A DNA stretch of 64,000 nt from Actinocrinis sp. Lineage in GTDB: Bacteria; Actinomycetota; Actinomycetes; Streptomycetales; Catenulisporaceae. The DNA lies in NCBI RefSeq assembly GCF_035605935.1, contig NZ_DATNGK010000266.1:24688-88687 (forward strand), given 5' to 3'. Position 1 is the stretch's first letter. Each line of letters begins with the position of its first letter. The position numbers and the translations under genes are program-made. This document shows positions 3,433-50,200 of the stretch, piece after piece. Under the pieces are notes generated by a model. The model saw only the letters and a list, made by a program, of their open reading frames with translations. It had not been told where the DNA came from and did not search any database.

Positions 3433-3447
3433 CGCACTCAGAGCGGC

Positions 3448-18441: not shown

Positions 18442-18572
18442 AAGCGCGGCTGGTCCGTGTCTCGTTTCCGACCTGCGGACGCCTTGAGCGCGAGCGCACA
18501 GAACCCAATACTGCTCGGACGGCTCGGCGCGGCCTGACGGGTGCAGGCGTCCAACGCGAGAGGTCGCATGCC

Positions 18573-19967: not shown

Positions 19968-22900
19968 TGTTCTCCCCCGTCGCTGATCGCAGCCGATCTC
20001 GGGCGCGGCGGCGAGCCATCGTGTACGCCGCGGTGCTCGCCCTCCTCGCGGGCCTGCTCGGGCTGGGATTCCAGCGGATCGCCGTGGCCGACACGGCCGC
20101 CGATACGAACATCGCACTCGGCGCCGAAGCCACCGCCTCCTCGGTCCAGGGGGCCGACACGCCGGCCTCCGCCGCCGTGGACGGCGACTCGACCACGCGG
20201 TGGTCTTCCGCGTGGAGCGATCCGCAATGGCTGCAAGTAGATCTCGGCGCGAACGCGGCGATCAGCGGCTTCTCGATCCAGTGGGAAGCCGCCTTCGCCA
20301 CCGCGTACCACATCGAGGTCTCCAGCGACGCGACGACGTGGTCGCAGGTCTCTGCGACCACGTCGGGCGCCGGCGGCACCGAGTCCGTCTCGGTGCCGTC
20401 CGGCACCACCGGCCGCTACGTGCGGCTGACCGGCACCGCGCGCACCACCATCGGCGGCGCGCAGTACGGCTATTCGATCTTTGAGTTCCAGGTGCTCGGG
20501 CACTTCACCCAGCAGGCAGTGAGTACGAGCACTGACGCGGTCAGTCTGCAGCAGGGCACGTCGATAGACCTGCCGGTGAAGCTGAACACGGCCTCGACCG
20601 CACCGGTCACCGTGGACTACGCGACCACCGACGGCAGCGCGGTGGCCGGCGCCGACTACACCGCGGCCGCCGGGACGCTGACCTTCGCGGCGGGTCAGAC
20701 CTCGCAGACGATCCATCTGGTCGCGCTACCGAACGCGCTGCACGCGCCGACCAAGACCTTCAGCGTGACGCTGGCGAACGCGAGCCCGTCCGGGACCGCG
20801 ATCGGCCCGCGTGCCACCACGACTGTCAGTATCCTGAACAACAATCCGGTGCCCAGCGACGGGGCGGTGGCGACCGTCGACGACTTCGAGGGCACGGTCC
20901 CATTCAGCAGCGGCAATCCGGGCATCTTCACCTTCTCCTCCGACGCCGCATCGACGCCCACGCTCACCCAGGTCGCGGCCGCTGACCGGCCCGGCGCCGC
21001 GAGCGGCAACCACGCGTTGCAGGTCTCTTACAAGATCAGCGGCTGGGGCGGGTTCTCGCACGACCTGGCCGCGGCGCAGGACTGGAGCGCCTATGACGGC
21101 TTCAGCTTCTGGGTCAAGGGCACCGGTTCGGGCCAGAAGGTCGAGTTCGAGGTCAAGATGGGCGGCGCGGACGCAGAGCACGCCGAGCTGTGGCAGTCCT
21201 TCTTCACCGACGACGTCAACGGCTGGAAGAAGGTGCAGGTCGGTTTCGCGAACCTGAAGAAGCGGGCCGACTACCAGCCCTCTGGCGCACCGAACTCCGC
21301 GCAGATCTCGCTGGCCAGCATGTGGGGTTATGCGGTCAATCTGCCCGGCAACTCCACGAACACACTGCGGTTCGACGACTTCCAGGTCTACCAGTCGCTG
21401 CAGACCATCCAGGACTTCGAGGGCGCGAACCCGATCACGGACACCAATGGCGCGCTCGCGAACACCGGCGCGTTCTCCTGGGGCGGCGATACCAACAGCA
21501 CCCCGACGCTGAGCATCGCGCAGCTCGACCGGCCGGGCGTGACCAACAACCACGTGCTGCGCGGCGCCTGGGTCTCCGACAGCAGCTACGGCGGCATGAG
21601 CTACGACCTGGCGACGAACACGCCGCAGGACTGGAGCCCCTACGCCGGCATCGAGTTCTGGTTCTACGGCCACAACCCAAGCAATGACGCGGTGCCCGGC
21701 TCCGGCGCCAAATACGAGTTCGAAGTGAAGATGGGCGGCGCGGACGGCGAGCACGCCGAGCTGTGGCAGACCTTCTTCACCGACGACTGGCAGGGCTGGC
21801 ACCTGATCCAAGTGCCGTTCTCCTCGCTCAAGCGGCGCACCGACTTCCAGCCCTCCGGCGCGCCCGGCAACACCACGATCGACCTGACCACGATGCGCGG
21901 CTTCGCCCTCACCGAGCCGGCCGGCACGACCAACGGCGAGTTCGACGTGGACCAGTTCGCGGTCTACGGAATCAACACCGGGACCCTTGGTGCGCACGTG
22001 AGCACCGCTCAGGCCGTCTACGCGGTCAACCCCGGCGGCACCGCCACGGTCGGTGTGACGCTGACGACTGACGGCGGCAAGGCGTTGGATCACGACGTGA
22101 CCGTCAACTACGCGCTCGGCGGCGCAAGCGCGGCAGCCGGCACGGACTACACCGATGCCAGCGGCAGCCTCACCTTCGCCACCGGTTCGGCCTCGGGCAG
22201 CACCCAGTCCTTCACGGTGCAGACGCTGCCGAACACGGCCGCCTCGACCGCGAAGACGATCCCGATCCAGCTGACGCCCACCGGCGCCGACGTGACCGCG
22301 GACAACCCGGTGGTGGTCATCAACGCGCACGGGCTGCCATATCTGGACTCTTCGCTGCCGGTCGCCAAGCGCGTGCAGGATCTGCTTTCGCGGATGACGC
22401 TGGATCAGAAGATCGGCCAGATGACGCAGGCGGAGCGCGGTGACCTGGCGCATCAGTCGGACATCACCGGAGCGGCGCTCGGCTCGCTGCTGAGCGGCGG
22501 CGGCTCGACGCCGACCCCGAACACGGCGCAGGCCTGGGCCGACATGATCGATTCCTTCCAGGCGCGGGCGCAGGCCACGGCGCTGCAGATCCCGCTGATC
22601 TACGGCGAGGACTCAGTACACGGAGACAACAACCTGGTCGGCGCGACGGTCTTCCCGCAGAACATCGCGATGGGCGCGACGCGTGACCCGGCGCTGGTGA
22701 AGCAGGACGGCCAGATCACCGCGACCGAGACCCGCGCGACCGGCGTCACTTGGGCCTTCTCGCCCTGCCTGTGCGTGGCGCGGGACGAACGCTGGGGCCG
22801 CACGTACGAGTCCTTCGGCGAGGACCCGGCGCTGGTCACCCAGATGGAGACCATCATCGACGGCCTGCAAGGGGACGGCGCGCTGAACAAGGACACCAGC

Positions 22901-24538
22901 GTGCTGGCGACGGCGAAGCACTTCGTCGGTGACGGCGGCACGACCTACGGCTCGTCGACCACGGGCTCGTACAAGATCGACCAAGGCGTCACTCAGGTGA
23001 CGCAGGCTCAGCTGCAAGCGCTGTACCTGGCGCCGTTCCAGGCGGCCGTGCAGCAGCACGAGGTCGGCTCGGTCATGCCGTCCTATTCGAGCCTGCAGAT
23101 CATCGGCAAGGACGCCGCGCCGATCAAGATGCATGCCCGCGCCGACATGATCGCCGGAGTGCTCAAGCAGCAGTACGGCTTCTCCGGGTTCGTGATCAGC
23201 GACTGGCAGGCCATCAACCAGCTCGGCCCGGACTACGAGACCGACATCGAGACCTCGATCAACGCCGGCCTCGACATGATCATGGTGCCGGACCAGTACA
23301 CGACCTTCGAGAACGACCTGAAGGACCTGGTGACCAAGGGCCTGGTGGCGCAGTCCCGGATCGACGACGCGGTCAGCAGGATCCTGACCCAGAAGTTCCG
23401 GCTTGGCCTGTTCGAGCAGCCGTACGCGGACCGGACCAACGCCTCGACCATCGGTGACGCGGCGCACCGGGCCGTGGCGCGGCAGGCGGCGGCCGAGTCG
23501 CAGGTGCTGCTCAAGAACGCGGCCGGAGCGGACGGGAAGGCAGCGCTGCCGTTGTCCTCGACCGCGAACATCTATGTCGCCGGAAGCAACGCCGACAATC
23601 TCGGCAACCAGGTAGGCGGCTGGACGGTCACCTGGCAGGGCGCCTCGGGCAACACGGACGTGGGCACCACCATCTACCAGGGCATGCAAGCCGATGCGCC
23701 GAACGCGCACTTCACTTACTCGAAGGACGCCTCGGCTCCTACTACGGGCTCTGATGTCGGCGTCGTCGTGGTCGGCGAAACGCCATACGCCGAGGGCGTG
23801 GGCGACGTCGGCAACGGCCACACGCTCGACCTGACGGCGGCCGACAAGGCAGCCGTGGACAAGGTCTGCGCGGCGATGAAGTGCGTGGTGCTGGTCGTTT
23901 CCGGCCGGCCGATGAACATCGCGCCGATTCAGGCCGAGGCAACCGCGATCGTGGCCTCGTGGCTGCCCGGCTCGGAGGGCGAGGGTGTCGCCGACACGCT
24001 GTTCGGCAAGTCCGCGTTCACCGGCCGGCTGCCCGATACCTGGGCCAAGCAGGTGGACACCACCACTTCGCCTGTGGACGTTGGCGTACCGCATACGACT
24101 GGAACGTACGACCCGCTGTACCCGTATGGCTGGGGCCTGCGGACCGACTCGGAGAAGGCACGCGTTACCGCAGTGCGCGATGCGTTGGCCAAGCAGCCCA
24201 GCTTCATCGCGCAGTTTGGTGCGGTATCGCTCAGCGCGCTGCTGGCAGCAAAGGGCAACTGGAACGCGGACGGCTCGGTACGTAACCAGACAGTGGCGCT
24301 GGTGCTGATCGGACTCGCCTCCCCAGCCGTCTCCGGTACCTCGCCCGCAGCGGAGCAGAACGCGAACCTGCTGGTCTCGGTCGTGCGCGACTTCGCACAG
24401 CAGGCGATCACGGCGGGCGGAGCGGCGGCCATGACGAAGACCGCGGCGACGACGGCCGACGCCGAGCACGCCCTGCTCAGCGGCGAAGCGGAAGCGGCGA
24501 TCAGCGGGTTGACCAAGGCGATGCTCACCGCGAAGTAG
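19967..24538 (+). CDS. Giant secreted multi-domain GH3 beta-glucosidase/exo-beta-glucanase (F5/8 type C + Calx-beta + 2 duplicated CBM-like modules + Calx-beta + GH3)
   Basis: The ATG overlaps the GH16 stop (TGATG at 19965-19969). Domains in order: signal peptide; discoidin 'DGDSTTRWSS...WLQVDLG'; Calx-beta 'VTVDYATTDGSAVAGADYTAAAGTLTF'; two ~170-aa paralogous modules sharing 'DFEG...(V/Y)EFEVKMGGAD(A/G)EHAELWQ(S/T)FFTDD..GW...QV.F..LK(K/R)R.D(Y/F)QPSGAP'; a second Calx-beta; and GH3 'LDQKIGQMTQ' and 'GFVISDW'. Confidence 0.88.
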   Translation: MFSPVADRSRSRARRRAIVYAAVLALLAGLLGLGFQRIAVADTAADTNIALGAEATASSVQGADTPASAAVDGDSTTRWSSAWSDPQWLQVDLGANAAISGFSIQWEAAFATAYHIEVSSDATTWSQVSATTSGAGGTESVSVPSGTTGRYVRLTGTARTTIGGAQYGYSIFEFQVLGHFTQQAVSTSTDAVSLQQGTSIDLPVKLNTASTAPVTVDYATTDGSAVAGADYTAAAGTLTFAAGQTSQTIHLVALPNALHAPTKTFSVTLANASPSGTAIGPRATTTVSILNNNPVPSDGAVATVDDFEGTVPFSSGNPGIFTFSSDAASTPTLTQVAAADRPGAASGNHALQVSYKISGWGGFSHDLAAAQDWSAYDGFSFWVKGTGSGQKVEFEVKMGGADAEHAELWQSFFTDDVNGWKKVQVGFANLKKRADYQPSGAPNSAQISLASMWGYAVNLPGNSTNTLRFDDFQVYQSLQTIQDFEGANPITDTNGALANTGAFSWGGDTNSTPTLSIAQLDRPGVTNNHVLRGAWVSDSSYGGMSYDLATNTPQDWSPYAGIEFWFYGHNPSNDAVPGSGAKYEFEVKMGGADGEHAELWQTFFTDDWQGWHLIQVPFSSLKRRTDFQPSGAPGNTTIDLTTMRGFALTEPAGTTNGEFDVDQFAVYGINTGTLGAHVSTAQAVYAVNPGGTATVGVTLTTDGGKALDHDVTVNYALGGASAAAGTDYTDASGSLTFATGSASGSTQSFTVQTLPNTAASTAKTIPIQLTPTGADVTADNPVVVINAHGLPYLDSSLPVAKRVQDLLSRMTLDQKIGQMTQAERGDLAHQSDITGAALGSLLSGGGSTPTPNTAQAWADMIDSFQARAQATALQIPLIYGEDSVHGDNNLVGATVFPQNIAMGATRDPALVKQDGQITATETRATGVTWAFSPCLCVARDERWGRTYESFGEDPALVTQMETIIDGLQGDGALNKDTSVLATAKHFVGDGGTTYGSSTTGSYKIDQGVTQVTQAQLQALYLAPFQAAVQQHEVGSVMPSYSSLQIIGKDAAPIKMHARADMIAGVLKQQYGFSGFVISDWQAINQLGPDYETDIETSINAGLDMIMVPDQYTTFENDLKDLVTKGLVAQSRIDDAVSRILTQKFRLGLFEQPYADRTNASTIGDAAHRAVARQAAAESQVLLKNAAGADGKAALPLSSTANIYVAGSNADNLGNQVGGWTVTWQGASGNTDVGTTIYQGMQADAPNAHFTYSKDASAPTTGSDVGVVVVGETPYAEGVGDVGNGHTLDLTAADKAAVDKVCAAMKCVVLVVSGRPMNIAPIQAEATAIVASWLPGSEGEGVADTLFGKSAFTGRLPDTWAKQVDTTTSPVDVGVPHTTGTYDPLYPYGWGLRTDSEKARVTAVRDALAKQPSFIAQFGAVSLSALLAAKGNWNADGSVRNQTVALVLIGLASPAVSGTSPAAEQNANLLVSVVRDFAQQAITAGGAAAMTKTAATTADAEHALLSGEAEAAISGLTKAMLTAK

Positions 24539-31722: not shown

Positions 31723-33366
31723 TCAACCGAGCCGCGGCTGTGCCCGATGCAGGATCGTCTTCGTGTCCGTACCGGCCGGGAGCGTGCCGAACGTGTGACC
31801 GGCGTTCCCGGCGAGGCGCGTGGCGCAGTATGCGTCCGCGACGGCTGTCGGCGCGTACCGGACCAACAGCGAGCCCTGGAGCACCGTCGCGAGCCTTTCG
31901 ACCAGCCGCCGAGCCTGGAATTCCGCTTCCGCGAGATCGGCCAGGCTGGTCAACTCGTCACGCAAACGAGCGAAAGCGGCGTCGAAGCGTGAATCTGAAC
32001 CCTGCGCCGCTCCCGCCTCCGCGAGAAACGCTTCCGCGCTTTCCGGCTCGCGGGCCAGCGCCCGCAGCACGTCCAGGGCGTTGACGTTCCCTGATCCCTC
32101 CCAGATCGAGTTGACCGGAGCTTCGCGCAGCAGCCGCGGCATCCCGGATTCCTCGACGTATCCGTTGCCGCCCAAGCACTCCAGCGCCTCGGCCGCGACC
32201 CCGATCGCCCGCTTGGTCACCCAGTACTTGCCCACCGCGACGCCGAGGCGGCGGAAGGCACGCTCGGCCGGATCCGCCGCGTCGAACGCGGCGGCCAGCC
32301 GGATGCCGAGCGCGGTCGCCGCCTGCGACTCGACCGCGAGATCGGACAGCACGTTGCGCATCAGCGGCTTGTCGATGAGTACCGAGCCGAAGGCCCGGCG
32401 GTGCGCGGCGTGATGTGTCGCCTCGGTAATCGCGCGGCGCATGATCGCGGCCGAACCCAGCACACAGTCCAGCCGCGTCATCGAGACCATCTCGATGATG
32501 GTCGCCACTCCGCGCCCCTCAGGGCCGAGCCGGCGTGCCCACGCGCCATCGAACTCGATCTCGCTCGACGCGTTGGAGCGGTTGCCGAGCTTGTCCTTGA
32601 GCCGTTGCAAGGAGATCCGGTTGCGGGTGCCGTCAGGTAACACGCGCGGCACGACGAAGCAGGTCAGACCTTCAGGCGCCTGGGCGAGGACGAGGAACAG
32701 GTCGCTCATCGGAGCCGAACAGAACCACTTGTGGCCGGTGAGCAGGTATTCGGCTTCTGCGTCGAGGGGCGCGGCCGCTGTCGTGTTCGCGCGCACGTCC
32801 GAGCCGCCCTGCTTCTCGGTCATCGCCATGCCGCACAGCAGCCCGGCCTTTCCCGCCGGCGCCCGCAGCCCGAAGTCGTAAATCAGGGACTTGAGTCCAG
32901 GCTCCCACATCGCCGCGGCCTCGGGATCGGTGCGCAGCGCGGCGATCCCGGCGTAGGTCATCGAGATCGGGCATCCATGCCCTGATTCCGCGGTGCTCCA
33001 GGCCATGAACCCGGCCGCGCGGGTCACGTGGGCTGCGGGGCCGCCGGACCAGGCGGCGCCGGCCAGGCCGTGCGAGACCGCCACTTCCATCAAGTGGTGC
33101 CAGGCCGGATGGAATTCGACCTCGTCGATGCGGTTTCCGTAACGGTCGTGCGTGCGCAGAACCGGCGTATACGTGTTCGCCTGCTGCGCCCAATGCAGGG
33201 TCCGGTGCGCTCCGGCGAGCCGGCCGAGCGTGGACAGGCCGTCGAGCGCGGCGCGGCCGCCGTGCCGGTCAACTGCCTCGACCAGGGTGTCGTCGCAGCC
33301 GAAAACGTCGTAATCCTGCAGCGGAGGCGCCTGATTCGGCGCGATGCGGGCGTCGTTGACCGTCAT
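31723..33366 (-). CDS. AidB-like acyl-CoA dehydrogenase family protein
   Basis: The 547-aa protein matches remembered E. coli AidB blocks: 'FHPAWH.LM', 'GM.MTEKQGGSDV..NTT', 'GHKWF.S.P.SD..LVLAQ', 'RLKDKLGNRSNASSE.EF' and 'PVNSIWEGSGN'. Confidence 0.88.
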   Translation of the reverse strand: MTVNDARIAPNQAPPLQDYDVFGCDDTLVEAVDRHGGRAALDGLSTLGRLAGAHRTLHWAQQANTYTPVLRTHDRYGNRIDEVEFHPAWHHLMEVAVSHGLAGAAWSGGPAAHVTRAAGFMAWSTAESGHGCPISMTYAGIAALRTDPEAAAMWEPGLKSLIYDFGLRAPAGKAGLLCGMAMTEKQGGSDVRANTTAAAPLDAEAEYLLTGHKWFCSAPMSDLFLVLAQAPEGLTCFVVPRVLPDGTRNRISLQRLKDKLGNRSNASSEIEFDGAWARRLGPEGRGVATIIEMVSMTRLDCVLGSAAIMRRAITEATHHAAHRRAFGSVLIDKPLMRNVLSDLAVESQAATALGIRLAAAFDAADPAERAFRRLGVAVGKYWVTKRAIGVAAEALECLGGNGYVEESGMPRLLREAPVNSIWEGSGNVNALDVLRALAREPESAEAFLAEAGAAQGSDSRFDAAFARLRDELTSLADLAEAEFQARRLVERLATVLQGSLLVRYAPTAVADAYCATRLAGNAGHTFGTLPAGTDTKTILHRAQPRLG

Positions 33367-33395
33367 GTCGTCAGTTTGTCATGTCGCTCCACCCG

Positions 33396-33424
33396 CTGTG
33401 GATCATCGTCGCGTAGATCCACAG
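33396..33424. promoter_or_regulatory. Inverted repeat CTGTGGATC-N11-GATCCACAG in the divergent aidB-like / WXG-operon intergenic region
   Basis: The 9-bp perfect arms were read directly. This is a candidate operator. Confidence 0.35.
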
Positions 33425-33540
33425 ACAGATAATCCGATCCTGCCGATTCGGTTCCGCGACGTCAGCGCGAGGGTCTAAGGTCTACCTGGATTCCCCAGGC
33501 GAGGAGGGGGGTTCACAGCCGAACCGGGGAGGCAAACACG

Positions 33541-33897
33541 GTGGGAAACTTTTTCCAGGTCGACCTCGACGTGCTCCAGCGCATGACCAAGACGCTGGGC
33601 GACGCCGGGGATCAGATGGAGTCCGCGCTCAAAGCGATGACTTCGTCGCAAGCGGGGCAGGTCGGCACCGAGGCGCTGAACAAGGCCGCCGACGCATTCC
33701 AGCACACCTGGCAGTACGGCCTCGGCCAGCTGCAGCAGGTGATCAAGGAGACGTCCGAGGGCGTCAAGAAGGCGCACGACGCATATAAGCAGTGCGACGA
33801 CGGCATCGAGCAGGCCATGTCGAAGATCAACAGCCAGGCCATGGGGGCCATCGACCAGGCGGTGCAGGCCGCGGCGGTGCACGGAGGGGCCAAGTGA
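33541..33897 (+). CDS. Small helical WXG100-superfamily-like protein (118 aa), first gene of a 4-gene operon
   Basis: The GTG start follows GGGGAGG. The opening 'FQVDLDVLQRMTKTLGDAG' is typical of Esx/Esp-type helical hairpins. The protein has two predicted long helices and no strict WXG ('HTWQYGLG'). Confidence 0.6.
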   Translation: MGNFFQVDLDVLQRMTKTLGDAGDQMESALKAMTSSQAGQVGTEALNKAADAFQHTWQYGLGQLQQVIKETSEGVKKAHDAYKQCDDGIEQAMSKINSQAMGAIDQAVQAAAVHGGAK

Positions 33898-35267
33898 GCG
33901 TGGTCGCGGAAGACGCAACGACGTACCCGAACCTCGGCTTCAACCCGGTACCAGGCGTGCCGGCGGATGTGGAGTCGATGAGCGCCGGCCTGGGGCAGGC
34001 GGTGTCCTCGATGCAGGAGTCCGGCTCGCTGCTCGACCAGATGCGCGACGCGGGCAGCGGGGTCTGGCAGGGCGAGGCCGGCGACAAGTTCCGTGAGCAC
34101 CTGGACACCAAGCTGGTCACCGACCTGCAGCACGCGCACGAGTCGCTCAACAACGCGGTCGGGGTGCTCAAGAGCTGGCACGGGGACCTACTCGGCTTCA
34201 AGGACGTGGCGGCCAAGCTGGACCAGGAGGCGGCCGAGGCCAAGCAGGCGGCGGCGCGCGCCGACGAGGCGGTCAAGCAGGCCGAGGCCAATCCGGACCT
34301 CAAGCTGGTCGGCCAGTTCTTCAACACCCAGGAGGCGCTCCAGGCCGCCCAGTCGCGAATAGACCAGGCGCAGGGCGCACTGCGGGACGCGGGTTCGGCC
34401 GCGCAGAACGCGCACGCCGAACTGGACTCGATCATGAAGCGGGCGCAGGAGCTGGCCGCGCAGCACGAGGCGGCGGCCCGCAAGTACGCGCAGGAACTGG
34501 AGCAGGCCACCAAGGGCCTTGCCCCGCACAAGCCGGGCTTCTTCAGCAGCCTGTGGAACGACTTCACCAGCGGCCTGAGCGCGGTGGGCAACTGGGTGAA
34601 GAACCACATCGACGTGATTCACTCGGTGCTGTCCACGATCTCCGCGGTAGCCGGCCTGATCGCGCTGTGCACCCCGCCGCCGATCGATGCGATCGCGGGC
34701 GCGGTGGCCATCGGCGCCGGAATCGGCGCGCTGGCCTGCGACCTGGCCAACCCGAAGGTGCGCGACGCCGTCGGCGGCCTGCTGACCGGCCACTTCACCA
34801 TGGACAACCTGAAGAACGCGTCCGCGATGGGCCTGGACGCGCTCAGCCTGATACCGGGCGGGAAGCTCGCGGGCGCGGCGCTGAAGGACGGCGAGGTGGT
34901 CCTCAAGGGCGCCGAAGGGATACCGACCCTGGCCGCGAAGCTCCCCGGGCTCGCCCAACTCGGCGGCGACGCGACGCGGGCGTTCGGCGACGCGGCGCAG
35001 GCCGGGGTCACCACGTTGGAGGACGGCACCAAGGCGTTCGACGCGGCCGGCAACGTGCTGCGTCAGGGCTCGAATATCGCGCACGGCCTGAGCCTGCCGG
35101 TCAAGCTCGGCGTCGGCGCGGCGAACAAGATCTTCAAGCTCGCCGACACCGCCACCGTGGACGGGGCCAAGTCGCTCGCCCAGCTCTCGCAGAACCTTGA
35201 GCTCGGCTGGAAAGCCAAGTCCGTGGTGAGCAGCCTGTACGGCGACGTGAAGCAGGCGGTGTCGTGA
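33894..35267 (+). CDS. T7SS-style effector-like protein: WXG100-like N-terminal domain + coiled coil + hydrophobic helical hairpin + Gly/Ala-rich C-terminal domain
   Basis: GTG at 33894 overlaps the upstream stop (GTGA) and follows GGAGGGG. Features are 'YPNLGFNPVPGVPADV', 'GVWQGEAGDKF' (W at nt 34065) and an Ala/Gln/Glu-rich coiled coil of ~130 aa. Two hydrophobic segments follow, 'VLSTISAVAGLIALC' and 'AIAGAVAIGAGIGALAC' (small-xxx-small zipper). Confidence 0.65.
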   Translation: MSVVAEDATTYPNLGFNPVPGVPADVESMSAGLGQAVSSMQESGSLLDQMRDAGSGVWQGEAGDKFREHLDTKLVTDLQHAHESLNNAVGVLKSWHGDLLGFKDVAAKLDQEAAEAKQAAARADEAVKQAEANPDLKLVGQFFNTQEALQAAQSRIDQAQGALRDAGSAAQNAHAELDSIMKRAQELAAQHEAAARKYAQELEQATKGLAPHKPGFFSSLWNDFTSGLSAVGNWVKNHIDVIHSVLSTISAVAGLIALCTPPPIDAIAGAVAIGAGIGALACDLANPKVRDAVGGLLTGHFTMDNLKNASAMGLDALSLIPGGKLAGAALKDGEVVLKGAEGIPTLAAKLPGLAQLGGDATRAFGDAAQAGVTTLEDGTKAFDAAGNVLRQGSNIAHGLSLPVKLGVGAANKIFKLADTATVDGAKSLAQLSQNLELGWKAKSVVSSLYGDVKQAVS

Positions 35268-35983
35268 GCACGCTCGGCAATATCCTCGACTCCGCTCCCG
35301 ACACGGAGGATCCGGACGCGCTCAACTGCTGGGTAGAGCTGCCGCCCGGCTACTTCCCGCTGCCGCTCGACGACATCGACAACGCCCTGGCCACCGCGGA
35401 GGCGAACCTGCGCGAGCTGGCTCCGGAGGAACAGCGGCCGCTGCTCGCCGCGGTGGTGGGCACGCTGATGGTGCTGCTGGAGCAGTTGCAGGAGCGCAAC
35501 GCCGCGTACTGCGGCATCGGCTGGCACACCGCCGAGGACGACACGGTCGTCCCCTCCAGCCTGGTGGTCTCGATCCAGCCATTCCCGCACAAGCGCAACC
35601 CGCGCCTGGTGATCAAGGACCTGGTCGAGGCGCGCGCGGAGGCCGGCGAACACGGCCAGGTCGACGTGGTCGACCTCAGCCGCGGCCCGGCGCTGTTCTT
35701 CGAGAGCGTGCTGACCCTGCCGCGCCCGCAGCTGCCCGGCCAGCCGCCGAACGAGCAGCCGGACGCCGAGGTCTACCAGCTCCAGGCCCTGGTGCCGAGC
35801 GCGGACGGCCGCAAGCTCGCCGCGATCGACTTCACCACGCCCGACATCCCACATGGACCGAGATTCCGGGCCATGATGGTGCTCATGGCCGACTCGGTGT
35901 CCTTCACCGCTCCTGCGGGGAGCGAGGAGGGCGGGGAGACGGCCAGGTCGATCAGCCAGATCCTTGGAGGACTCGCCCCGTGA
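35264..35983 (+). CDS. Hypothetical soluble protein (239 aa), third gene of the operon
   Basis: GTG at 35264 overlaps the upstream stop (GTGA). It has no TM or signal sequence and no motif I recognise. Confidence 0.6.
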   Translation: MSTLGNILDSAPDTEDPDALNCWVELPPGYFPLPLDDIDNALATAEANLRELAPEEQRPLLAAVVGTLMVLLEQLQERNAAYCGIGWHTAEDDTVVPSSLVVSIQPFPHKRNPRLVIKDLVEARAEAGEHGQVDVVDLSRGPALFFESVLTLPRPQLPGQPPNEQPDAEVYQLQALVPSADGRKLAAIDFTTPDIPHGPRFRAMMVLMADSVSFTAPAGSEEGGETARSISQILGGLAP

Positions 35984-36651
35984 CCGGCTCGCTCCCGTCG
36001 TGGTCGCCGCTCAACGACCCGCAGTTGTCCGCGCAGATTCAGGCCCGGCTCGCCAACGGGCAGGAGAAGACGCGGGTCGAGGCGCAACGCGATTTGTACT
36101 TCCTTGAGCGGTTCGAATGGCGCGAGTACCCCGCCAAGTGCGGACGCTGGCATTTGGGCGAGGCCGGGTCGTTCACGCTGACCGGCGGCAGCAACCTTTC
36201 GGGGCCGTGGACCAAGATGGACTGGAGCCCGGACTACCGGTGGGTGCTGCTGCTCGATCCGGCCAGCCGGCAGCCGATCGCCGCCCATATCGTCAACGAC
36301 TGGTGGGTCGAGGATCCGAAGGCGCGTCAGGTCGTGCCGGTAGCCAACGGGGTGACGAGCTTCTGGTTCGCGGGCAACCCCCTGCTCGGCGGAATGTTCA
36401 CCCCGGCCGGCAACGGCCATCGGGCAGTGTTCGGATACCGCAGCGGGCACTCGGAGGTCGCCAACTTCGTCAACTGGACGAGCGGTCCCGCCCGATTCGA
36501 GCAGCTCGCCGCTCAAGCCGCTTCGTGGACCTACACGGATAAGGTGGCGAGCGAATTCGGTCCCTGGCTCGCCGATCAGCCGCAGCAGCCGCCGCGGCCG
36601 CGCCGCTTCAGCCGCCTGGCCTGGCAGGCCACTACCCCGACGCAGCCATAG
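35980..36651 (+). CDS. Hypothetical Trp-rich soluble protein (223 aa), fourth gene of the operon
   Basis: GTG at 35980 overlaps the upstream stop (GTGA). It is Trp-rich (13 W), probably beta-rich, with a Pro/Gln-rich tail and no recognised motif. Confidence 0.6.
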   Translation: MTGSLPSWSPLNDPQLSAQIQARLANGQEKTRVEAQRDLYFLERFEWREYPAKCGRWHLGEAGSFTLTGGSNLSGPWTKMDWSPDYRWVLLLDPASRQPIAAHIVNDWWVEDPKARQVVPVANGVTSFWFAGNPLLGGMFTPAGNGHRAVFGYRSGHSEVANFVNWTSGPARFEQLAAQAASWTYTDKVASEFGPWLADQPQQPPRPRRFSRLAWQATTPTQP

Positions 36652-36664
36652 CGCCGAGCGGGCG

Positions 36665-36940
36665 CTACAGGCGGGCCGCACCCTCGCGCGCGGCTTTATC
36701 CAAGCGCAGGGCGAGGGCCGGGCAATCGGTCACCGCCCTGCGTGCGTCTGCGAGCAGCTGTGCGGGGATGGCGCGGTCCGCGATGATCGGATAACCCCAT
36801 TCGTCCAGCGCTATGTGTTCGCCGAGCAGTTCGGCGCATAGGCCGTGGCCGCTGCATCTCGTCGGGTCCAGCCGCAATCGAGCGCCCGCGCCCGAAGCAG
36901 TGCCGGAGTCTGTGGCTGCGTTCGTTGCGTGCATCGTCAT
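36665..36940 (-). CDS. Small single-cluster ferredoxin (CxxHxxC...CP type)
   Basis: The sequence 'RLRLDPTRCSGHGLCAELL......DEWGYP........A..AV..CPALALRL' fits this type. Its ATG overlaps the upstream stop (ATGA at 36937-36940). Confidence 0.75.
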   Translation of the reverse strand: MTMHATNAATDSGTASGAGARLRLDPTRCSGHGLCAELLGEHIALDEWGYPIIADRAIPAQLLADARRAVTDCPALALRLDKAAREGAARL

Positions 36941-38268
36941 CGCCAGTCCTCGTCGGTGCGCGGCGGGTTCATCGGCGAGGGCAGGGGAAGGAACGCGCGG
37001 TCGTTCGACGCGACGCACATTCCCTGCCCGTGCCGCCATAGCTCCTCTTCGAAGACTGTCAGGGCGCTGCGCACCAGCCGGATACTTCCGTCCGGGTGAT
37101 GGCAGGCGCCGCGCCGCTCGATCTGTCCCGCCCAGCGGGACACATCGGCGCGCTCTCGGGCGTGAACGCCCGGCCCCGCGAGTACTCGCAACGCGTGCGC
37201 GATGCGTGGCAGACCATTGAGGCACGGCCCGCATTGCCCGGCTGACTCGGCGGCGAGGTACGAAACGACCCGCGCGGTCTCCCGCAGTCCGCAGCAGTCA
37301 GCGGGCAACGCCGCCAGCACTCCGGCGCCGAGCGAGGCGCCTTCTGCTCGCAATGCCGCGTTGGTGAGCGGCAGTGCGGTAGCGCGATCCGCGGGCAGCC
37401 AGGTGCCGTGGTAGCCGCCGATCAGCACTGCGCGCGGCGCCGATCCGCCTCCGGCGGCGGCCGTGGCGGCATCGAGCCCGAGCAACTCACCCAGCGGGGC
37501 GCCGGGCGCCGTCTCGATCACCCTCGGGGTCGCGTTCGGCCGGTGCACCGTCGCCAACAGCGTGCCGGGTTCGTCCGAAGTCCCGGCCGCACGAAACCAG
37601 CCGGCTCCGTAGTCTGCGATCAGCGCGAGATGGGCAAGCGTCTCAACGTTCTGCACCAGAGTCGCAGCGCCGCCGATGCCGCGTTCGCTGACGCGCAGCG
37701 GCGCGTATCGAGGCAGCGCAAGGCCGCCCTCGATACGGTGCACAACCGCGGTTTCCTGACCGGCGATGAAACGCGGCGCAGCTTCGACCACCGTGACCGG
37801 CACGCGGTCGACACCAGCGCGCACTCGCTCCGCGACGGCTTCCCGTACCCGTCTCAGCACCCGTTGATCGGGGTGTATGTATGCGTATGCCTGCCGTGCG
37901 CCGACGGCTTCGGCGGCCAGCTGCAGCCCGTCGAGCACGAGATGCGGGTCCGAGTAAAGCAGGGTTCTGTCTTTGCACGAGGCGGGCTCGCCTTCCGCGC
38001 CGTTCGCCACGACCACTGCGCCGCCAGCTGCCCGCAATACCGCCTCAAGCTTGCGATAGGTAGGGAATCCGGCTCCGCCCCGACCGGTCAAGCCCGCCGC
38101 ACGGACCTCGTCTATCAACACCTGGGGCGCGCCCCGATACGAGGCGGGACCGTACAGCGCCCGGTGCTGTTCGAGGCTGAGCGACCGGTCGGGGTAAGGC
38201 AGAAGCCGGCGGAAATCGGAGCCTTGGTACACCGACGTATCCGAGGGCTGAGTCGCCATGACGTTCAC
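36937..38268 (-). CDS. NuoF-like NAD(P)H-binding flavoprotein with SLBB and 4Fe-4S region
   Basis: It has 'GLTGRGGAGFPTYRKLEAV' (the NuoF 51-kDa Gly-rich motif) and the cluster region 'SAGQCGPCLNGLPRIA...RGACHHPDG'. GTG at 38268 overlaps the upstream stop. Confidence 0.8.
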   Translation of the reverse strand: MNVMATQPSDTSVYQGSDFRRLLPYPDRSLSLEQHRALYGPASYRGAPQVLIDEVRAAGLTGRGGAGFPTYRKLEAVLRAAGGAVVVANGAEGEPASCKDRTLLYSDPHLVLDGLQLAAEAVGARQAYAYIHPDQRVLRRVREAVAERVRAGVDRVPVTVVEAAPRFIAGQETAVVHRIEGGLALPRYAPLRVSERGIGGAATLVQNVETLAHLALIADYGAGWFRAAGTSDEPGTLLATVHRPNATPRVIETAPGAPLGELLGLDAATAAAGGGSAPRAVLIGGYHGTWLPADRATALPLTNAALRAEGASLGAGVLAALPADCCGLRETARVVSYLAAESAGQCGPCLNGLPRIAHALRVLAGPGVHARERADVSRWAGQIERRGACHHPDGSIRLVRSALTVFEEELWRHGQGMCVASNDRAFLPLPSPMNPPRTDEDWR

Positions 38269-38885
38269 TGCTGCCTACCCCCGCTGAGTTGTTCGGTCAG
38301 GACGGAAACGCGCGCGGCGCGCGGCACATCGTGCGGCCTTCGACCCTCGCTGACCCGCCAGGCCAGCGCCGCGAGGACGGCGAGGACGCATCCGATGCCG
38401 AGGCCGAGCAGCCAGCCGCTCTGCATGTCGGTGCTGCTGCCGAGGCTGTGTGCGACGGATACCGGCCAGGAGAGGTAAGCCAGCCAGTGCACCCACCGCC
38501 AGGTGCGATGCCCAATCCGGGCGCGAAGCAGGCTCGTGATGATCAGAGCGAGGATGAGGTCGAAGGCGACCGTACCGAGCCCGAGCCACAGTGGCTCGTA
38601 AGAGGCGGCGAACGGGATTATCGCGTCTGTGAGGCGGATGTTCACGTAGGAGTCGGCGACCGCGGTGACGATATGGATCGCCAGGAAGGCGACCGAAAGT
38701 AACGAGATGCTGCGGTGCAGGCCGACCACGGCGAACCTCGGCAGGCCGGGCAGCCTGCCATGTTTCTGGACCGCGACGCCGAGCACGACGACACCGGTGA
38801 GCATGATCAACGACACGACGCCGGTGGCTCGGCTGGTGTACCAGAGCGCGGTACTCGACGTGATGCCGCTCGCCGCGGCGCTCAT
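38265..38885 (-). CDS. Ferric-reductase-like transmembrane (heme b, MsrQ/YedZ-like) protein
   Basis: The 206-aa protein has 5-6 TM helices with conserved His residues ('GLHRSISLLSVAFLAIHIV', 'VHWLAYLSWPVSVAHSL'). Its start overlaps the ApbE stop (ATGA). Confidence 0.75.
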   Translation of the reverse strand: MSAAASGITSSTALWYTSRATGVVSLIMLTGVVVLGVAVQKHGRLPGLPRFAVVGLHRSISLLSVAFLAIHIVTAVADSYVNIRLTDAIIPFAASYEPLWLGLGTVAFDLILALIITSLLRARIGHRTWRWVHWLAYLSWPVSVAHSLGSSTDMQSGWLLGLGIGCVLAVLAALAWRVSEGRRPHDVPRAARVSVLTEQLSGGRQQ

Positions 38886-39928
38886 CTTCCGATTCCAGTC
38901 CCAGGCGAGAGCGCCGCGCGCATTCCGCCGCCCGCGAGCGAGCCGACTGACTCAGCCTGCTGATCCGGCGGCCAACCGCCAGTGGTCCGCACCCGCCCGT
39001 CCAAGTCCACCAACCGGGCCGCAATCCCCCGCTGCTCGAAGCGCGCGAGCGCCGCACGCCCCCTGATGATCGCGCCGGTCGCCGCGACGTTCGCGGTGAG
39101 ACAGTCCGGCGCGGTGACCGAGACGGTGCGCCACACGGTCGGCGCCGGCAGTCCGTCGCGCGGGTTGAGGATGTGGTGCAGCACGGCGCCGCCGCGTTCC
39201 CAGCGCCGAGCGGTCGTGCTGGAGGTGGCCAGCGCGCCGCCGCGCAACGCGATCGTCTGCGCCGGGCCGGTCGGCGCGTCATCCGGATGACCGGTCACGT
39301 CCTGGACCCGCACCCGCCATCCGCCGCGCGGCGCCGGTCCCGCGGTGGCGATGTCGCCGCCCAGTGAGACGAGCACGCCGCAGCGCAGCCGTTGCGCGAT
39401 CCGCGTCGCCGCCCGGTCCGCGGCCCACGCCTTCGCGGTCGCACCGAGGTCGAGGCGGGTGCCCGGCGGCATACGCAGGCTGCGCGAGGCTCGCTCGAAG
39501 GTGATCCGCCGCCATCCCGGCACCGGCCGCGCGCTGAGCGTGATCGCGGGGCCGTTCGGCGCGACCAGCGCGAAATCTCGGTCGTATCCGAGGGCTGACA
39601 TTGCCTCGCCGACGGTCGGGTCGATGTCGCCGTCGCTGGCGCGCGCCGCGTCCAGCGCCACGCCGATCGCCTCGGTCAGCAAAGGGGAAAGAGTCACCCA
39701 GCGGCCGTCAGCGGCGTCGAGCGCGGCCAGTTCGGAATCCGCGCGAAAACGGCTGCACGCGCGGTCGAGACCATCGAGGTCTGATTCGAGGAGCGAACGC
39801 GCCGCGGCGAGCCGGCCGGGGTTGGTGACCAGCAGGCTGATTCGGGTGCCGATGGCGGTCCAGTCGCTCGCCCCGACGCGCTCCTCGATCGGCGGGGCGG
39901 GCCGGGTCGCGGTGGTGGCGCTCATCAC
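38882..39928 (-). CDS. apbE: ApbE-family FAD:protein FMN transferase
   Basis: Motifs are 'SRFR.DSEL..LN', 'GDIDPTVG', 'LDLGATAKAWAAD' and 'LVSLGGDIA'. The start is the GTG at 39928 or the ATG at 39925, and both overlap the upstream stop. Confidence 0.85.
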   Translation of the reverse strand: MMSATTATRPAPPIEERVGASDWTAIGTRISLLVTNPGRLAAARSLLESDLDGLDRACSRFRADSELAALDAADGRWVTLSPLLTEAIGVALDAARASDGDIDPTVGEAMSALGYDRDFALVAPNGPAITLSARPVPGWRRITFERASRSLRMPPGTRLDLGATAKAWAADRAATRIAQRLRCGVLVSLGGDIATAGPAPRGGWRVRVQDVTGHPDDAPTGPAQTIALRGGALATSSTTARRWERGGAVLHHILNPRDGLPAPTVWRTVSVTAPDCLTANVAATGAIIRGRAALARFEQRGIAARLVDLDGRVRTTGGWPPDQQAESVGSLAGGGMRAALSPGTGIGR

Positions 39929-47272: not shown

Positions 47273-50200
47273 TCAGGACTCTTCGTCAGCGTCATCCAGC
47301 TGCGCGCGGCTCGCGAAGAACTCGGCGTTCTCGCGGGCCGTGCGCGCGAACTCCGGGTAGCCCCAGCGCTCGCAGCCCTCTGCGAACGCCAGCTGCCACT
47401 GGGAGGCGCCCGCGGCGTTCTCCCCGAGCACCGCGATGGCCAAGCTCAGTGTCTTGAGTGCGGCCTCCAGCGCCGCGACGAACTCTTCGCGCGCGTCGCC
47501 CTCTTGCGGATGCTCGAGCAGTGACCACAGGTCGCGCGCCCCGGCTTCGGCGGCCCTCTGTGCTTCCGGGAGCAGTTCCTCGGTCTCCTCCTGCGACAGC
47601 GTCTGCATCTCGATCCGCTTGACCACGTGCTTGAGCCGCAGTGTGCGCGCCCGCGCGATCAGAAAGTCCCGATAGCGCTCGGCAGTCGAGTCGTCCTCGG
47701 CGCAGGCGCGTAGGTGCGCGACCGCTTCGTCGAGCTGTTCGAGTGCTGCTTTGATATCGGTCGCGGCCAGCAGCCGGGCCACCGACTCGAGCGCCGCGGT
47801 GGTCGGTTGGTGACCTGCCGACGACCGGCCGTCCCGCGCCGATTCCCGATACGCCTCAAGCGCTGCCGCCTCATCGCCGTCCTGCTCGGCCGACTCGGCG
47901 AGTTGGTGCAGCAGCCAGGCGCGCGCGGTCGGGTAGTCCTTCGGGACGAGCGCGAGCACGTCGCGCAGCACACGTGCCGCGTCGCGCGCTCGATCGAGCT
48001 TGCACAGGCTGATCGAGTAGTGCAGAGAACTGAGATGGATCAGCTCTCGGCATTCGTCGTCATCCCAGCGCCCCATGATCTGTGCGAGCGCCGGATGAAA
48101 GAAGTTCAGCGCCGTTTCGTGGCGCCCTGCGCGGTGATGCACCTCACCCATCAGCAGCCTGGCTCGCGCCGCGCCCACCGGATCGCTGCCCGCCAGCAGG
48201 CGCGCCGCCTGCACCGCCGCCTGCGCCACCTCGTCGTCCCGCGCGTGCTCCGGATCCCGTGAGCTTTGCGCGTTAATCGCCTCGGCGAGCAGCAGCGCGG
48301 TCAGCCCGGGCAGGTCGGGGGCGACCGGTGGATTGCCGAGCTGCGAGACGCGCCGGGCGCAGCGCTCGGCATCGGCGGGCTGGTGTGCGGCGAGCAGCAC
48401 CTGTCCTCGGCGCAGCAGTGCCTCCGCAGCGAGCCAGGGCTGGTATACCGCGCTGTACACGTCGGCCAGGTCGCCGAGGCGATCCAGCAGGCTGCTGATA
48501 TACCCGGTGGCTTCACCTTCGTCGCCCTGCCGAGCGAACATGCGAGCCATGGCGCCGGTGACCTCGGCCCAAGCCCGCGCCGCGGCGGCGTACTGAGGCG
48601 TGGCGCCGTGCGCGTCGGCCAGCTCCCGGAAGGTCCGGTACTCCTCGGAGGCTTCCTCGGCGATGAGCCGGCCGGCCTCCTCATCGATGTCCGGTTCGGC
48701 GTCCACGGCCCGCCGCCAGCGGTCCAGGTGCCGGTAGAGCCCGTACAAGCGGACCGTCACGAGCTGGGTCCCGGTGATCCGACCCCCCTCGAACTCGGCT
48801 TGCGCCGCTTTCCAGGCTTCCGCCTGCACGGTCGCAGCAGCCTCAGCCTCTTCTGCGCCGACGAGGTACCGCTGGAACGCGCTCATCGCCCGGCAGCGCA
48901 GCGCGTCGCCGGTGCGGCCGAGCGTCGCGTAGAGCGTTGCGGCGAAGGCGAGTTGTTCGTGGGCCGCGGCGTGATCGGCGCGCTGCGCGAGCGCGGTACC
49001 GCGGCTTTCGGACAGTTCCGCCGCCACATCGTCGCTCAGCCCGGTTCCGCTCGCGGCGACCTGCTCCCAGGCCGCGCATGCGTGCGGATGCCGCAGGAAG
49101 GAGAGGTAGCGCGCACGAGCCGCCAGCGCGTCCACGGCTGCGAATCCACGCGGGAGTGTCCGCGCAGCGCTGCCGTCGACGCGGCCGCGGGCGTCCCAGG
49201 GCATCGGGATCGGTGGCCATGTCGCTTCAAGCCAGCCCGACTCCAGCCATCCGGTCGGCGGCGGCAACTCGTCGTGCCGCAGCTTGGCGGTGCGCCAGGA
49301 CTCCAAGGTCTCCGCATGCTCGCTGCCGCCGACGGCCGCGTCCTGGTGCGCGGCGTAGTCGGCGAGCACTGCGTCGAGTTCGGCGTAGAGGGCCGCGGCG
49401 GTGACGATCTGGCGCGGCGAGCGGGTGATCGGCAGGTCCCCGTGTCCGGCATCGACGAGCAGCTTGAGGAAGAGCAGAAAGCGCCCGTGCACCCACCAGT
49501 ACTCGCCGACCGCGTCACGATGTGCGGGCAGCCAGTCGATGTGGTCGTGCAGGATCTCCAGGCCGCGCAACACATCGCGGGTCCGGTTGACGAACAGCGC
49601 GTGCAGTTCCAGTTGGCGCGGCAGGTCGCGGCGGCGGCGGACCACCGGGTACCCGAGCCGGTGGTGTTGCCGGGCCTTGTCGAAGCGGTCGAGGTTGAGC
49701 AGGTCGATCATCACCTCGCCGTGGGCGATGCCGACGTGCGAGCGTTCGCAGCTGCGCACCCCGGCGATGATCGCCAGCCAAAGGTCCACGGCCTTGGGCA
49801 GTTCGTCCTGCCGCTCGTACCAGTAGGCCGCGGTGGCCAGGTCACAGGCGTCGCAGGCGGCTCCGGCGTCCCCATCCTCGGCCAGCAGAGCCTCGATACG
49901 CAGGGTGGCCAGCTCGTTCTCGCCGCGGCGGCGGTGAATCCAGTACCGGCTGCGGTGTACCGCCCGCAGGCTGTAGCCGCCGGTCAGGTAGAAGGATTCC
50001 ATTTCGTCGGTGAGCCGATCGACCTCCGCGGCGGGCACCCGCTCGTCGGCGTCGAGGACATCGACGACATGCTGGAAGTGCTCACGGAAGCGGAAACGCA
50101 GCGCCGCGTCGAAGACCTCTGACTTGGTCTGCCAGATCCGCCAGGCCCGGCTGAAGGCGAGGACCATGCCCTGCTCGTCGCCGTCCTCCTGGCAGTCGTC

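Follow-up and report, generated by a model that had tools for sequence, protein, structure and literature searches.

A conserved four-gene operon of Actinocrinis as a probable stand-alone substrate module of an ESX-4-like type VII secretion system

The window analysed here is a 64-kb stretch of actinobacterial DNA with ~69% GC, whose closest relatives are metagenome-assembled genomes (MAGs) of Actinocrinis. It contains four consecutive plus-strand open reading frames (ORFs), here called g1 to g4 (Table 1). We consider this operon to be probably a stand-alone substrate module of an ESX-4-like type VII secretion system (T7SS, subtype T7SSa), which brings along dedicated cytosolic chaperones or neutralisers, while the secretion system is encoded elsewhere in the genome. 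A preliminary description of the same DNA had already suggested an orphan secreted substrate of T7SS type with a partner and helper proteins, and the profiles, motifs, synteny and a homologous locus in Streptomyces canus support this reading on the level of sequence. For the pairing of g1 and g2, their export, the membrane insertion and the chaperone roles, we infer the following scheme. Both g1 and the N-terminal ~100 residues of g2 would fold as a helix-turn-helix, and the two would associate in an Esx-like four-helix bundle. The bundle would show a composite export signal to EccC, with WxG on g2 and YxxxD/E on g1. The g2 hairpin, two hydrophobic Ala/Gly-rich helices with a TPPP turn, would insert into a membrane after export; before export, g3 would keep it soluble and harmless in the cytoplasm of the producer. 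g4 may be a second, clade-specific and fast-evolving cytosolic partner, i.e. a co-chaperone or neutraliser that possibly binds residues 341-430 of g2.

Whether the gene families co-occur and keep their order in other genomes had been raised as a question before, and it is answered positively. A genome scan with a g3 profile, together with contig look-ups, gave 29 loci (labelled by L-numbers), and the order g1-g2-g3 is held in all of them, two being rearranged or degenerate in detail, while g4 is present in most. Five orders are represented (Catenulisporales, Kitasatosporales with Streptacidiphilus, Pseudonocardiales and Micromonosporales, plus Nocardia), and the carriers are Actinocrinis, Actinospica, Streptacidiphilus, Pseudonocardiaceae, Amycolatopsis, Gandjariella, Planosporangium, Actinoplanes, Krasilnikovia and Nocardia. 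The g2-g3 junction overlaps (-1, -4 or -17) in every locus where both genes are adjacent and g2 is intact. It is this conserved gene set and order, plus the g2-g3 overlap kept across five orders, that goes beyond chance. Streptomyces, Kitasatospora and Allostreptomyces keep the trio of a DUF6317 gene, a g2-like and a g3-like gene, the latter with A2-HMM E-values of 5.7e-9 to 8.5e-7 in Streptomyces and Kitasatospora and weaker ones in Allostreptomyces (HMM, hidden Markov model).

Single loci deviate in ways worth recording. In Actinocrinis puniceicyclus (L008, NODE_17, 3132-6971) a g4-like gene is located between g2 and g3, the full series being g1, g2, g4-like, a 22-aa N-terminal fragment of g2, g3 and a g4 fragment. 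The same organism carries a second, more divergent cassette (L012, NODE_237), in which the YxxxD motif of g1 is degraded to YKQCGG. The locus of Nocardia speluncae (L029, 5535-7532) looks degenerate, as only a ~37-aa N-terminal piece of g2 is left between g1 and g3, and in another Nocardia sp. (L027, 6602-7752) there are apparently two tandem g4-like ORFs.

The connection to a secretion machinery comes from Streptomyces canus, where a homologous cassette is embedded in an ESX locus (L032). The cassette follows right after genes for EccE, EccB, two WXG100 proteins, an S8 mycosin-like peptidase, a DUF2563 protein and another S8 peptidase that is anchored C-terminally, and its order is DUF6317, g3-like, g2-like (P0345) and a protein with two transmembrane segments. 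Through this locus, together with export motifs and family names, the family appears to be tied to type VII secretion. In Actinomycetota other than mycobacteria, every T7SS is ESX-4-like (PMC11217815), and ESX-4 exports larger effectors pre-assembled with WXG100-like partners (10.64898/2026.08.24.746431). The toxin EatA of the Mycobacterium abscessus ESX-4 system, with its co-encoded WXG100-like partners TapA1 and TapA2, is such a pre-assembled effector (10.64898/2026.08.24.746431) and resembles the g1-g2 pair proposed here in this respect. In contrast to g2, for which no enzymatic domain was found in Pfam and NCBIfam scans and which has one small partner, EatA is an arabinanase with two Tap partners and a lipoprotein immunity partner.

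In the window itself, Pfam scans of ~40 ORFs supported by third-position GC (GC3) revealed no EccB, EccC, EccD or EccE, no Peptidase_S8 (mycosin) and no FtsK_SpoIIIE domain, which bears out the earlier statement that the 64 kb hold no ESX/Ess machinery. Two window ORFs of ~1000 aa remain without any family; an EccC would match FtsK_SpoIIIE strongly. The S. canus ESX locus (JBEXSU010000030.1, 1-20230) is, as an observation in its own right, packed with further WXG-type substrate candidates. They comprise a DUF2563 gene with a 488-aa WxG protein that has a long Gly-rich tail, a 144-aa gene with a 750-aa WxG protein, and a 107-aa gene with a 376-aa WXG100_2/PPE-like protein with a transmembrane segment, followed by a 482-aa polytopic membrane protein.

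g1 had been described as a two-helix protein similar to Esx/Esp proteins, and the profile searches agree with this. It exceeds the cut-off of Pfam DUF6317 (PF19840) with 28.1 versus 27.4 bits over residues 1-91 of 118, matches EspC weakly, and stays below the cut-offs of WXG100 PF06013 (18.9 versus 27.3 bits) and TIGR03930 (22.1 versus 44.85 bits). The best PDB match of a profile from 19 homologues is the ESAT-6-like MAB_3113 (4i0x_B, E 1.9e-4, residues 3-88). Homologues of g1 sit upstream of g2 in 27 loci, and neighbour-gene tables label them DUF6317 in L002, L004, L031, L032, L033 and L035. After helix 2, g1 carries Y82-K-Q-C-D86, and the pattern Y-x-x-x-[D/E] is kept in 26 of the 27 homologues with Y82 invariant. 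This is in good agreement with YxxxD/E after a helix-turn-helix as the general T7SSa secretion signal (PMC6107294, citing Daleke et al. 2012). In known substrate pairs it is carried by EsxB, PE35, EspC and EspF, and WxG by the partners EsxA, PPE68, EspA and EspE (PMC6107294).

The cassette resembles the mycobacterial sets PE/PPE-EspG, EspC/EspA-EspD and EspF/EspE-EspH in that a small YxxxD/E partner is combined with a large WxG partner with a C-terminal domain and a co-encoded cytosolic chaperone, which in the cassette is putative. Such WxG/YxxxD-E pairs have dedicated chaperones, and espACD is encoded 260 kb from ESX-1 (PMC6107294), just as our cassette stands apart from a machinery. Unlike these sets, the cassette shows no PE, PPE or EspG match in Pfam, its small gene comes first, and its large partner has a hydrophobic hairpin, which mycobacterial Esp substrates do not have; EspD and EspH are YbaB-like, whereas g3 is Mog1/PsbP-like. 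We also considered g3 and g4 as EspG chaperones and rejected this, since neither has a Pfam match and no EspG occurs among the top 50 Foldseek matches of either model.

Both g2 motifs quoted in the preliminary description, YPNLGFNPVPG at residues 11-21 and VWQGEAGDKF with W58-Q-G60, are present and strongly conserved. Y11, P12, L14, G15, F16, P18, P20 and G21 are invariant in 24 homologues, and L14, G15, F16, P18 and G21 remain so when representatives from Streptomyces, Kitasatospora and Allostreptomyces are added. The best PDB match of the g2 profile is the ESAT-6-like MAB_3112 (4i0x_A, E 0.0093), with W58-Q-G60 aligned to the WxG of that protein; the WXG hairpin of g2 is a prediction from the sequence profile. 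Hence the g1 and g2 profiles each have one chain (B and A) of the same solved Esx heterodimer as their best match, and these paired matches, with marginal scores, fit a predicted four-helix bundle of g1 and the g2 N-terminus. A direct profile-profile comparison of g1 with the g2 N-terminus gave a weak, off-register match (probability 20.6) that was not used. Like the cassette genes g1 and g2, which are adjacent and co-translated with g1 of about 100 aa, MAB_3112/MAB_3113 of M. abscessus form a pair, chain B being matched by g1 over its full length and chain A by the g2 N-terminus at the WxG. The differences are the 457 aa of g2 with coiled coil, hydrophobic hairpin and C-terminal extension, the W-x-Y-G turn of g1, the marginal E-values (1.9e-4 and 9.3e-3) and the fact that only g1 reaches a Pfam cut-off (DUF6317).

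Among the 24 aligned g2 homologues, 8 match PF21725 T7SS_signal (best E 1.3e-7), 6 match WXG100 (E<=0.01) and 3 match LXG weakly. Many homologues carry a precomputed PF21725 domain and the NCBI name 'putative T7SS-secreted protein', and they share the signature YPxLGFxPxPG...WxG with PF21725 proteins. Differences to the latter are that the g2 of the window lies below PF21725 detection, that the NCBI name is a prediction, and that the hairpin and the g3/g4 partners belong to no described family. An HMM search with g2 in 1.84 billion representatives, i.e. clusters at 50% identity, retrieved 1261 at E<=1e-3, 566 at <=1e-10 and 159 at <=1e-30. In the best 150 of the 1261, from which sizes and spans were taken, all relatives have <=526 aa and most ~380-500 aa, and they match from the N-terminus through the hairpin. 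g2 is therefore a member of a large, architecturally uniform family. The uniform size and span of these 150 led us to reject a polymorphic toxin with swapped C-termini. The likeness of the g2 N-terminus to T7SS-associated polymorphic proteins that had been noted earlier is thus retained as far as PF21725, WXG100 and LXG matches of relatives and the WxG are concerned, but not with respect to a swappable toxin C-terminus.

Residues ~95-210 of g2 form an Ala/Gln/Glu-rich coiled coil, which is the source of spurious matches to SMC, ApoLp and ZorA. Here a different explanation has to be considered, namely that the four proteins form a non-secreted, cytoplasmic, membrane-associated coiled-coil complex (PspA-, apolipophorin- or DivIVA-like), which shares only an ancient hairpin ancestry with WXG100. 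The coiled coil weakly matches MscS_porin, apolipophorin-III, PspA_IM30, SMC and ZorA tails, some sources name homologues DivIVA, YhgE or ElaB-like, and most loci have no secretion machinery nearby. The coiled-coil matches, however, are low-complexity noise far under the curated cut-offs, and a non-secreted complex leaves the YxxxD/E, the WxG, the paired Esx-chain matches and the ESX copy in S. canus unexplained. We regard this explanation as very improbable.

Behind the coiled coil, the conserved LAPHKPG, W234 and H238 precede two hydrophobic helices (243-260 and 264-285), which are seen by hydropathy only. Kyte-Doolittle means over 17 residues peak at 2.06, with centres near residues 251 and 274. 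The residues T260, P261, P262, P263 and D265 of the connecting turn are invariant. An AxxxGxxxG pattern (A270-xxx-G274-xxx-G278) occupies positions 270-278, of which G274 is not conserved (Val in the consensus), while A275, G276 and G278 are. At nearly every evolutionary distance sampled, the block 211-340 is the most conserved part of g2. The lowest block identity is found in residues 341-430, e.g. 31-32% where the hairpin block has 75-81%, and gaps make it impossible to align this region from one genus to another. In near clades, a conserved helix makes up the last ~30 residues. A signal peptide was not predicted from the sequence of g2.

For g3 and g4, the preliminary description had noted that both are soluble and match nothing that could be named. 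Hydropathy and sequence prediction indeed give neither a transmembrane segment nor a signal peptide for either protein, and no sequence family was found, but g3 can now be named at the level of its fold. While g3 has no Pfam, NCBIfam or PDB sequence match, and 14 diverse family members have none at E<=1 either, its confident AlphaFold2 (AF2) model (predicted local distance difference test 81, predicted template modelling score 0.77) is a Mog1/PsbP-like alpha-beta-alpha sandwich. Among the Foldseek matches SciW is the closest (6xrb, 9mvg and 6xrr; the apo protein as well as its complex with the Rhs1 transmembrane domain), and the others include MTC28, DcrB, Tsi3, Mog1, PsbP and LpqN, with probabilities of 0.92-1.0, a query template modelling score (TM-score) of about 0.26-0.39 and a target TM-score of up to 0.62. 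The top 13 PDB matches consist of 11 entries for SciW, MTC28, DcrB, Tsi3, Mog1 or PsbP and two for the uncharacterised BT_1490 (probability 0.98-1.0, query TM-score about 0.27-0.34).

Eag chaperones, which are DUF1795 proteins (SciW, EagT6, EagR1), shield the transmembrane helices of effectors in the cytoplasm before export by the T6SS (secretion system of type VI; PMC7773334). The similarity to g3 lies in the match of its model to SciW, both apo and bound to the Rhs1 transmembrane domain, and in its position next to the effector-like g2 with two hydrophobic helices. In contrast to Eag proteins, g3 has no DUF1795 sequence similarity in the 14 family members at E<=1, the query TM-score is about 0.25-0.27, there are two extra N-terminal helices, the secretion system is another one, and the hydrophobic helices of g2 are located mid-protein instead of N-terminally. 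From the invariant g2-g3 gene overlap and the hydrophobic hairpin we propose, by analogy, that g3 may bind and shield the g2 hairpin. It would be translated from the overlapping start and thus be translationally coupled to g2, with a fold that Eag chaperones use to cradle transmembrane helices.

g4 has no Pfam, NCBIfam or PDB sequence match, and its likewise confident AF2 model (predicted local distance difference test 80, predicted template modelling score 0.76) matches no fold credibly, whether in PDB or in BFVD (probability <=0.20). We tested g3 and g4 as paralogues in the manner of ExiA/ExiB and rejected this (hhalign probability 0.09). An iterated HMM places g4 downstream of g3 in most loci and between g1 and g2 in Micromonosporales. 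Comparing locus L006 with the window, identities are 96% for g1, 90% for g2 (tblastn), 91% for g3 and 64% for g4. g4 and residues 341-430 of g2 are the parts that evolve fastest; their co-variation is only a hint, as phylogeny was not controlled.

The Streptomycetaceae-type cassettes of Streptomyces, Kitasatospora and Allostreptomyces have, instead of g4, a small protein with two transmembrane segments, which is a candidate for a membrane immunity or assembly factor. The replacing membrane proteins are located at 2878-3390 in L031, 11617-12075 in L032, 12210-13202 and 6243-6833 in L033, and 11440-12051 in L035. In L031, L032 and L035 the hydrophobic segments lie close to the N-terminus, in L033 in the middle of the protein. 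A C-terminal '...YYRQLGA...A...HGW' domain is common to three of the five proteins, and those of L035 and L031 are related by BLAST.

By analogy, the closest experimentally characterised parallel to the cassette seems to be EsxX of Staphylococcus aureus, a T7SSb effector that forms a pre-secretion complex with Lap partners carrying the export motif and with soluble ExiA-ExiB, which sequesters its glycine zipper (PMC12744356). In both cases a helical N-terminal targeting domain goes with a small motif-bearing partner, there is a hydrophobic helix of small residues, and two soluble alpha/beta proteins co-occur with the effector (ExiA/ExiB; cf. g3/g4). The EsxX/LapX3/LapX4/ExiA/ExiB system differs in phylum and T7SS subtype, in its LXG domain and in having two Lap partners instead of one. 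Moreover, the two Exi proteins are DUF5085 paralogues; g3 and g4, by contrast, are neither related to one another nor, with no Pfam match, to DUF5085, and the polytopic immunity ExiCD of the EsxX locus is absent from the window cassette.

The behaviour of the fourth gene raises the question of an interbacterial toxin-immunity module, in which g2 would be a depolarising or pore-forming toxin delivered by the T7SS and g4 (or g3) its immunity protein, with the role taken by the protein with two transmembrane segments in Streptomycetaceae. In this case one would point to g4 and g2 341-430 as the fastest-evolving parts (64% for g4 against 90-96% for the others in L006), and to the swap of the fourth gene in three genera, since immunity to channel-forming effectors is usually provided by polytopic membrane proteins (PMC12744356). 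Multiple or tandem copies, e.g. in A. puniceicyclus (L008, L012) and Allostreptomyces (L033), are in line with it as well, the Ala/Gly small-xxx-small helices of g2 resemble the zippers of TelE, EsxX and TspA, and the fold of g3 also matches the T6SS immunity protein Tsi3. However, g3 and g4 are cytoplasmic and soluble and could protect only from toxin still inside the producer, and the clade of the window has no membrane immunity gene. The best 150 representatives show no domain swapping, no arrays of orphan immunity genes were encountered, and the strict (G/A/S)xxxGxxxG is not conserved across the family, with Val for G274 in the consensus. The cassette is, furthermore, chromosomal with a genus-stable context and essentially absent from plasmids. 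A plasmid-borne or mobile cassette was in fact considered and rejected: the only match is a weak one on a 2.8-Mb Streptomyces replicon without annotation. Strong vertical conservation, the stable chromosomal context and the absence of swapped C-terminal domains likewise count against a classical polymorphic toxin. Taken as a whole we judge the toxin-immunity explanation to be rather unlikely.

The same conservation leads to the opposite idea of a housekeeping envelope or developmental factor, with g2 exported or inserted by ESX and anchored in the producer's own membrane by the hairpin, e.g. at hyphal tips or sporulation septa, and with g3 and g4 as assembly chaperones. This would agree with the vertical conservation in mycelial orders, the uniform architecture and the hairpin as the most conserved part. 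Streptomyces ESX affects sporulation and development, not virulence, which is a further argument in this direction. The flanks of the cassette differ between genera, with a stable context within the genus. Core chromosomal neighbourhoods also speak in favour: the cassette adjoins mfd in both Amycolatopsis and Streptomyces monomycini, and a Pseudonocardiaceae MAG has it near metG/rsmI/rpf. For such a complex, however, the fast divergence of g4 and g2 341-430 and the clade-wise replacement of the fourth gene are unusual, and degenerate or rearranged copies exist (L029, L008). We hold this role to be distinctly improbable.

Within the substrate-module reading, which we prefer, the question returns as one of purpose. 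That g4 and g2 341-430 evolve fast and that the fourth gene is swapped favours a weapon; vertical conservation, uniform architecture and core-genome context favour a function in the producer's own envelope. We lean slightly towards g2 as a membrane-active effector rather than a producer-envelope factor. Concerning the genomic position, the cassette lies directly beside mfd in L021 (7373-10945, Amycolatopsis) and in L035 (5950-9489, S. monomycini), on opposite sides, and this adjacency in two orders may go back to where the cassette stood on an ancestral chromosome. A polymorphic-toxin/immunity-type protein of 892 aa, with an XOO_2897-type deaminase and SUKH-4, is encoded ~9 kb upstream of the S. 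monomycini cassette (L035, 1-1048).

Several points weigh against the substrate-module reading and explain why we word it as probable. No secretion machinery was found within 6-10 kb of the 12 stand-alone loci examined (L001, L002, L004, L015, L016, L020, L021, L024, L026, L031, L033 and L035), so that the link to ESX comes from one Streptomyces locus plus family annotation. The turn of g1 is W57-Q-Y-G60, i.e. WxxG and not W-x-G, and this W-x-[YF]-G is conserved in 27 homologues. g2 itself lies below the PF21725 and WXG100 thresholds (no PF21725 match at E<=1; 16.6 bits with TIGR03930), and even the best PDB match of its profile reaches only the marginal E-value given above. The fold matches of g3 have low query TM-scores and no DUF1795 sequence support, and the same fold class holds an immunity protein (Tsi3) and secreted lipoproteins (LpqN, MTC28). 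Finally, in the searchable literature no paper was found that describes DUF6317, PF21725 or the 'T7SS-secreted protein' family, and the general literature on Streptomyces T7SS yielded no study of this family.

Two of the four components are already catalogued without being characterised, g1 as DUF6317 and g2 as a PF21725-type 'putative T7SS-secreted protein'. Pfam, NCBIfam and the searchable literature apparently contain no description of the g3 and g4 families, of the four-gene set, of the hairpin as conserved core or of g3 having an Eag-like fold. What the ancestral ESX-4-type systems export outside mycobacteria, e.g. in Streptomyces, Amycolatopsis, Actinoplanes and Nocardia, is barely known, and the cassette could fill this gap: it marks a very large family (1261 clusters) with clear export motifs, a conserved core that is presumably membrane-active, and two helper families described in no database. 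If confirmed, it would provide a defined set of substrate and chaperone for T7SSa recognition in genetically tractable, non-pathogenic hosts, and a test case for hydrophobic cargo in a secretion system that exports folded helical bundles. The g2 family may represent new membrane-targeting effectors of antibiotic-producing soil bacteria. Should the proteins not be secreted, they would still constitute a conserved four-protein membrane-associated complex in mycelial actinomycetes. As a more far-reaching and tentative speculation, which we would not bet on, g1-g2-g3 might stand for a large class of membrane-inserting hairpin proteins that soil actinomycetes export by ESX-4. The Mog1/PsbP-fold g3 could then be the first T7SSa chaperone of transmembrane domains, either independent of Eag or anciently shared with it, and g4 and the Streptomyces protein with two transmembrane segments could be alternative neutralising partners of new membrane-depolarising antibacterial effectors.

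Table 1. Position of the operon genes and their features in the 64-kb window.
Feature	Position	Strand	Basis
Shine-Dalgarno-like GGGGAGG, 8 nt before the GTG start of g1	33526..33532	+	sequence reading
g1, 118 aa, WXG100-clan helical hairpin (DUF6317), putative small partner with export motif	33541..33897	+	Pfam, PDB profile match, homologues
g1 Y82-K-Q-C-D86, YxxxD/E after helix 2	33784..33798	+	codons read; homologue alignment
g2, 457 aa, WXG/T7SS_signal-like N-terminus, coiled coil, hydrophobic helical hairpin, variable Ala/Gly-rich stretch, conserved C-terminal helix	33894..35267	+	homologues, PDB profile match
g2 residues 11-21, YPNLGFNPVPG, family signature	33924..33956	+	alignment
g2 W58-Q-G60, WxG motif	34065..34073	+	invariant in both g2 alignments
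g2 residues 243-285, two hydrophobic small-residue-rich helices with T-P-P-P-x-D turn, putative membrane hairpin	34620..34748	+	hydropathy, alignment
g2 residues 341-430, fast-evolving Ala/Gly-rich region	34914..35183	+	block identities
g3, 239 aa, cytoplasmic alpha/beta protein, Mog1/PsbP/DUF1795-like fold, proposed dedicated chaperone	35264..35983	+	AF2 model, Foldseek
g4, 223 aa, cytoplasmic Trp-rich alpha/beta protein, undescribed family, fastest-evolving cassette member	35980..36651	+	AF2 model, HMM

The four ORFs are supported as genes by a coding-type GC3 of 0.87-0.92 and by alignments of homologues, in which protein conservation starts at the proposed start codons of g1 to g4. A purine-rich Shine-Dalgarno-like stretch is found a few bases 5' of the starts of g1, g2 and g4, and a weaker one before g3. 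Each junction is a GTGA start/stop overlap (33894-33897, 35264-35267 and 35980-35983), exactly as first described. The overlaps had been taken to argue for strict co-translation, and this conclusion has to be toned down: they are real, but GTGA alone argues nothing special. Overlaps of 4 nt or 1 nt occur in 8 of 30 same-strand neighbour pairs of the window, and the adjacent minus-strand operon at 36665-39928, which served as a control, likewise has three consecutive -4 overlaps. Therefore we rejected the triple GTGA as a special feature; it is ordinary operon architecture for an actinobacterium with 69% GC.

Neither a sigma-70-type promoter nor an intrinsic terminator was found in 33200-36950, and a search of the 30-40 kb part of the window gave no RNA elements, sigma-70 promoters or intrinsic terminators. 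The flanks are ordinary metabolic genes, in line with the preliminary description. The divergent genes upstream encode an AidB-like acyl-CoA dehydrogenase as well as an EF-hand protein; downstream, the convergent minus-strand operon encodes a ferredoxin, a Nuo51-like FMN/4Fe-4S protein, a ferric-reductase-type membrane protein and an ApbE flavin transferase. g2 is 99% identical to a protein on a 1.5-Mb contig whose neighbourhood equals that of the window. An anti-phage defence system was also considered and rejected, as the only PADLOC matches were weak ones of coiled-coil type that g1 and g2 gave (ZorA tail, JetC), while g3 and g4 had none.

A few other genes of the window deserve mention. 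A minus-strand ORF of 993 aa (15213-18194) has no Pfam match and hits NCBIfam NF047832, 'caspase, EACC1-associated type', with 153 bits (cut-off 140) over residues 89-299; judged by this match, it resembles the caspase-like part of a system for conflict or defence. Two adjacent minus-strand ORFs of ~1000 aa (47273-50350 and 50367-53540) have a coding-like GC3 of 0.83-0.86 but belong to no family in Pfam or NCBIfam; the second matches MalT-type tetratricopeptide repeats weakly. On the plus strand, a ricin-B-lectin protein (18363-19967) precedes, with a 16-nt overlap, a glycoside hydrolase of 1528 aa (19952-24538) that combines F5/8 type C, Calx-beta, two CBM11 and the GH3 N- and C-terminal domains.

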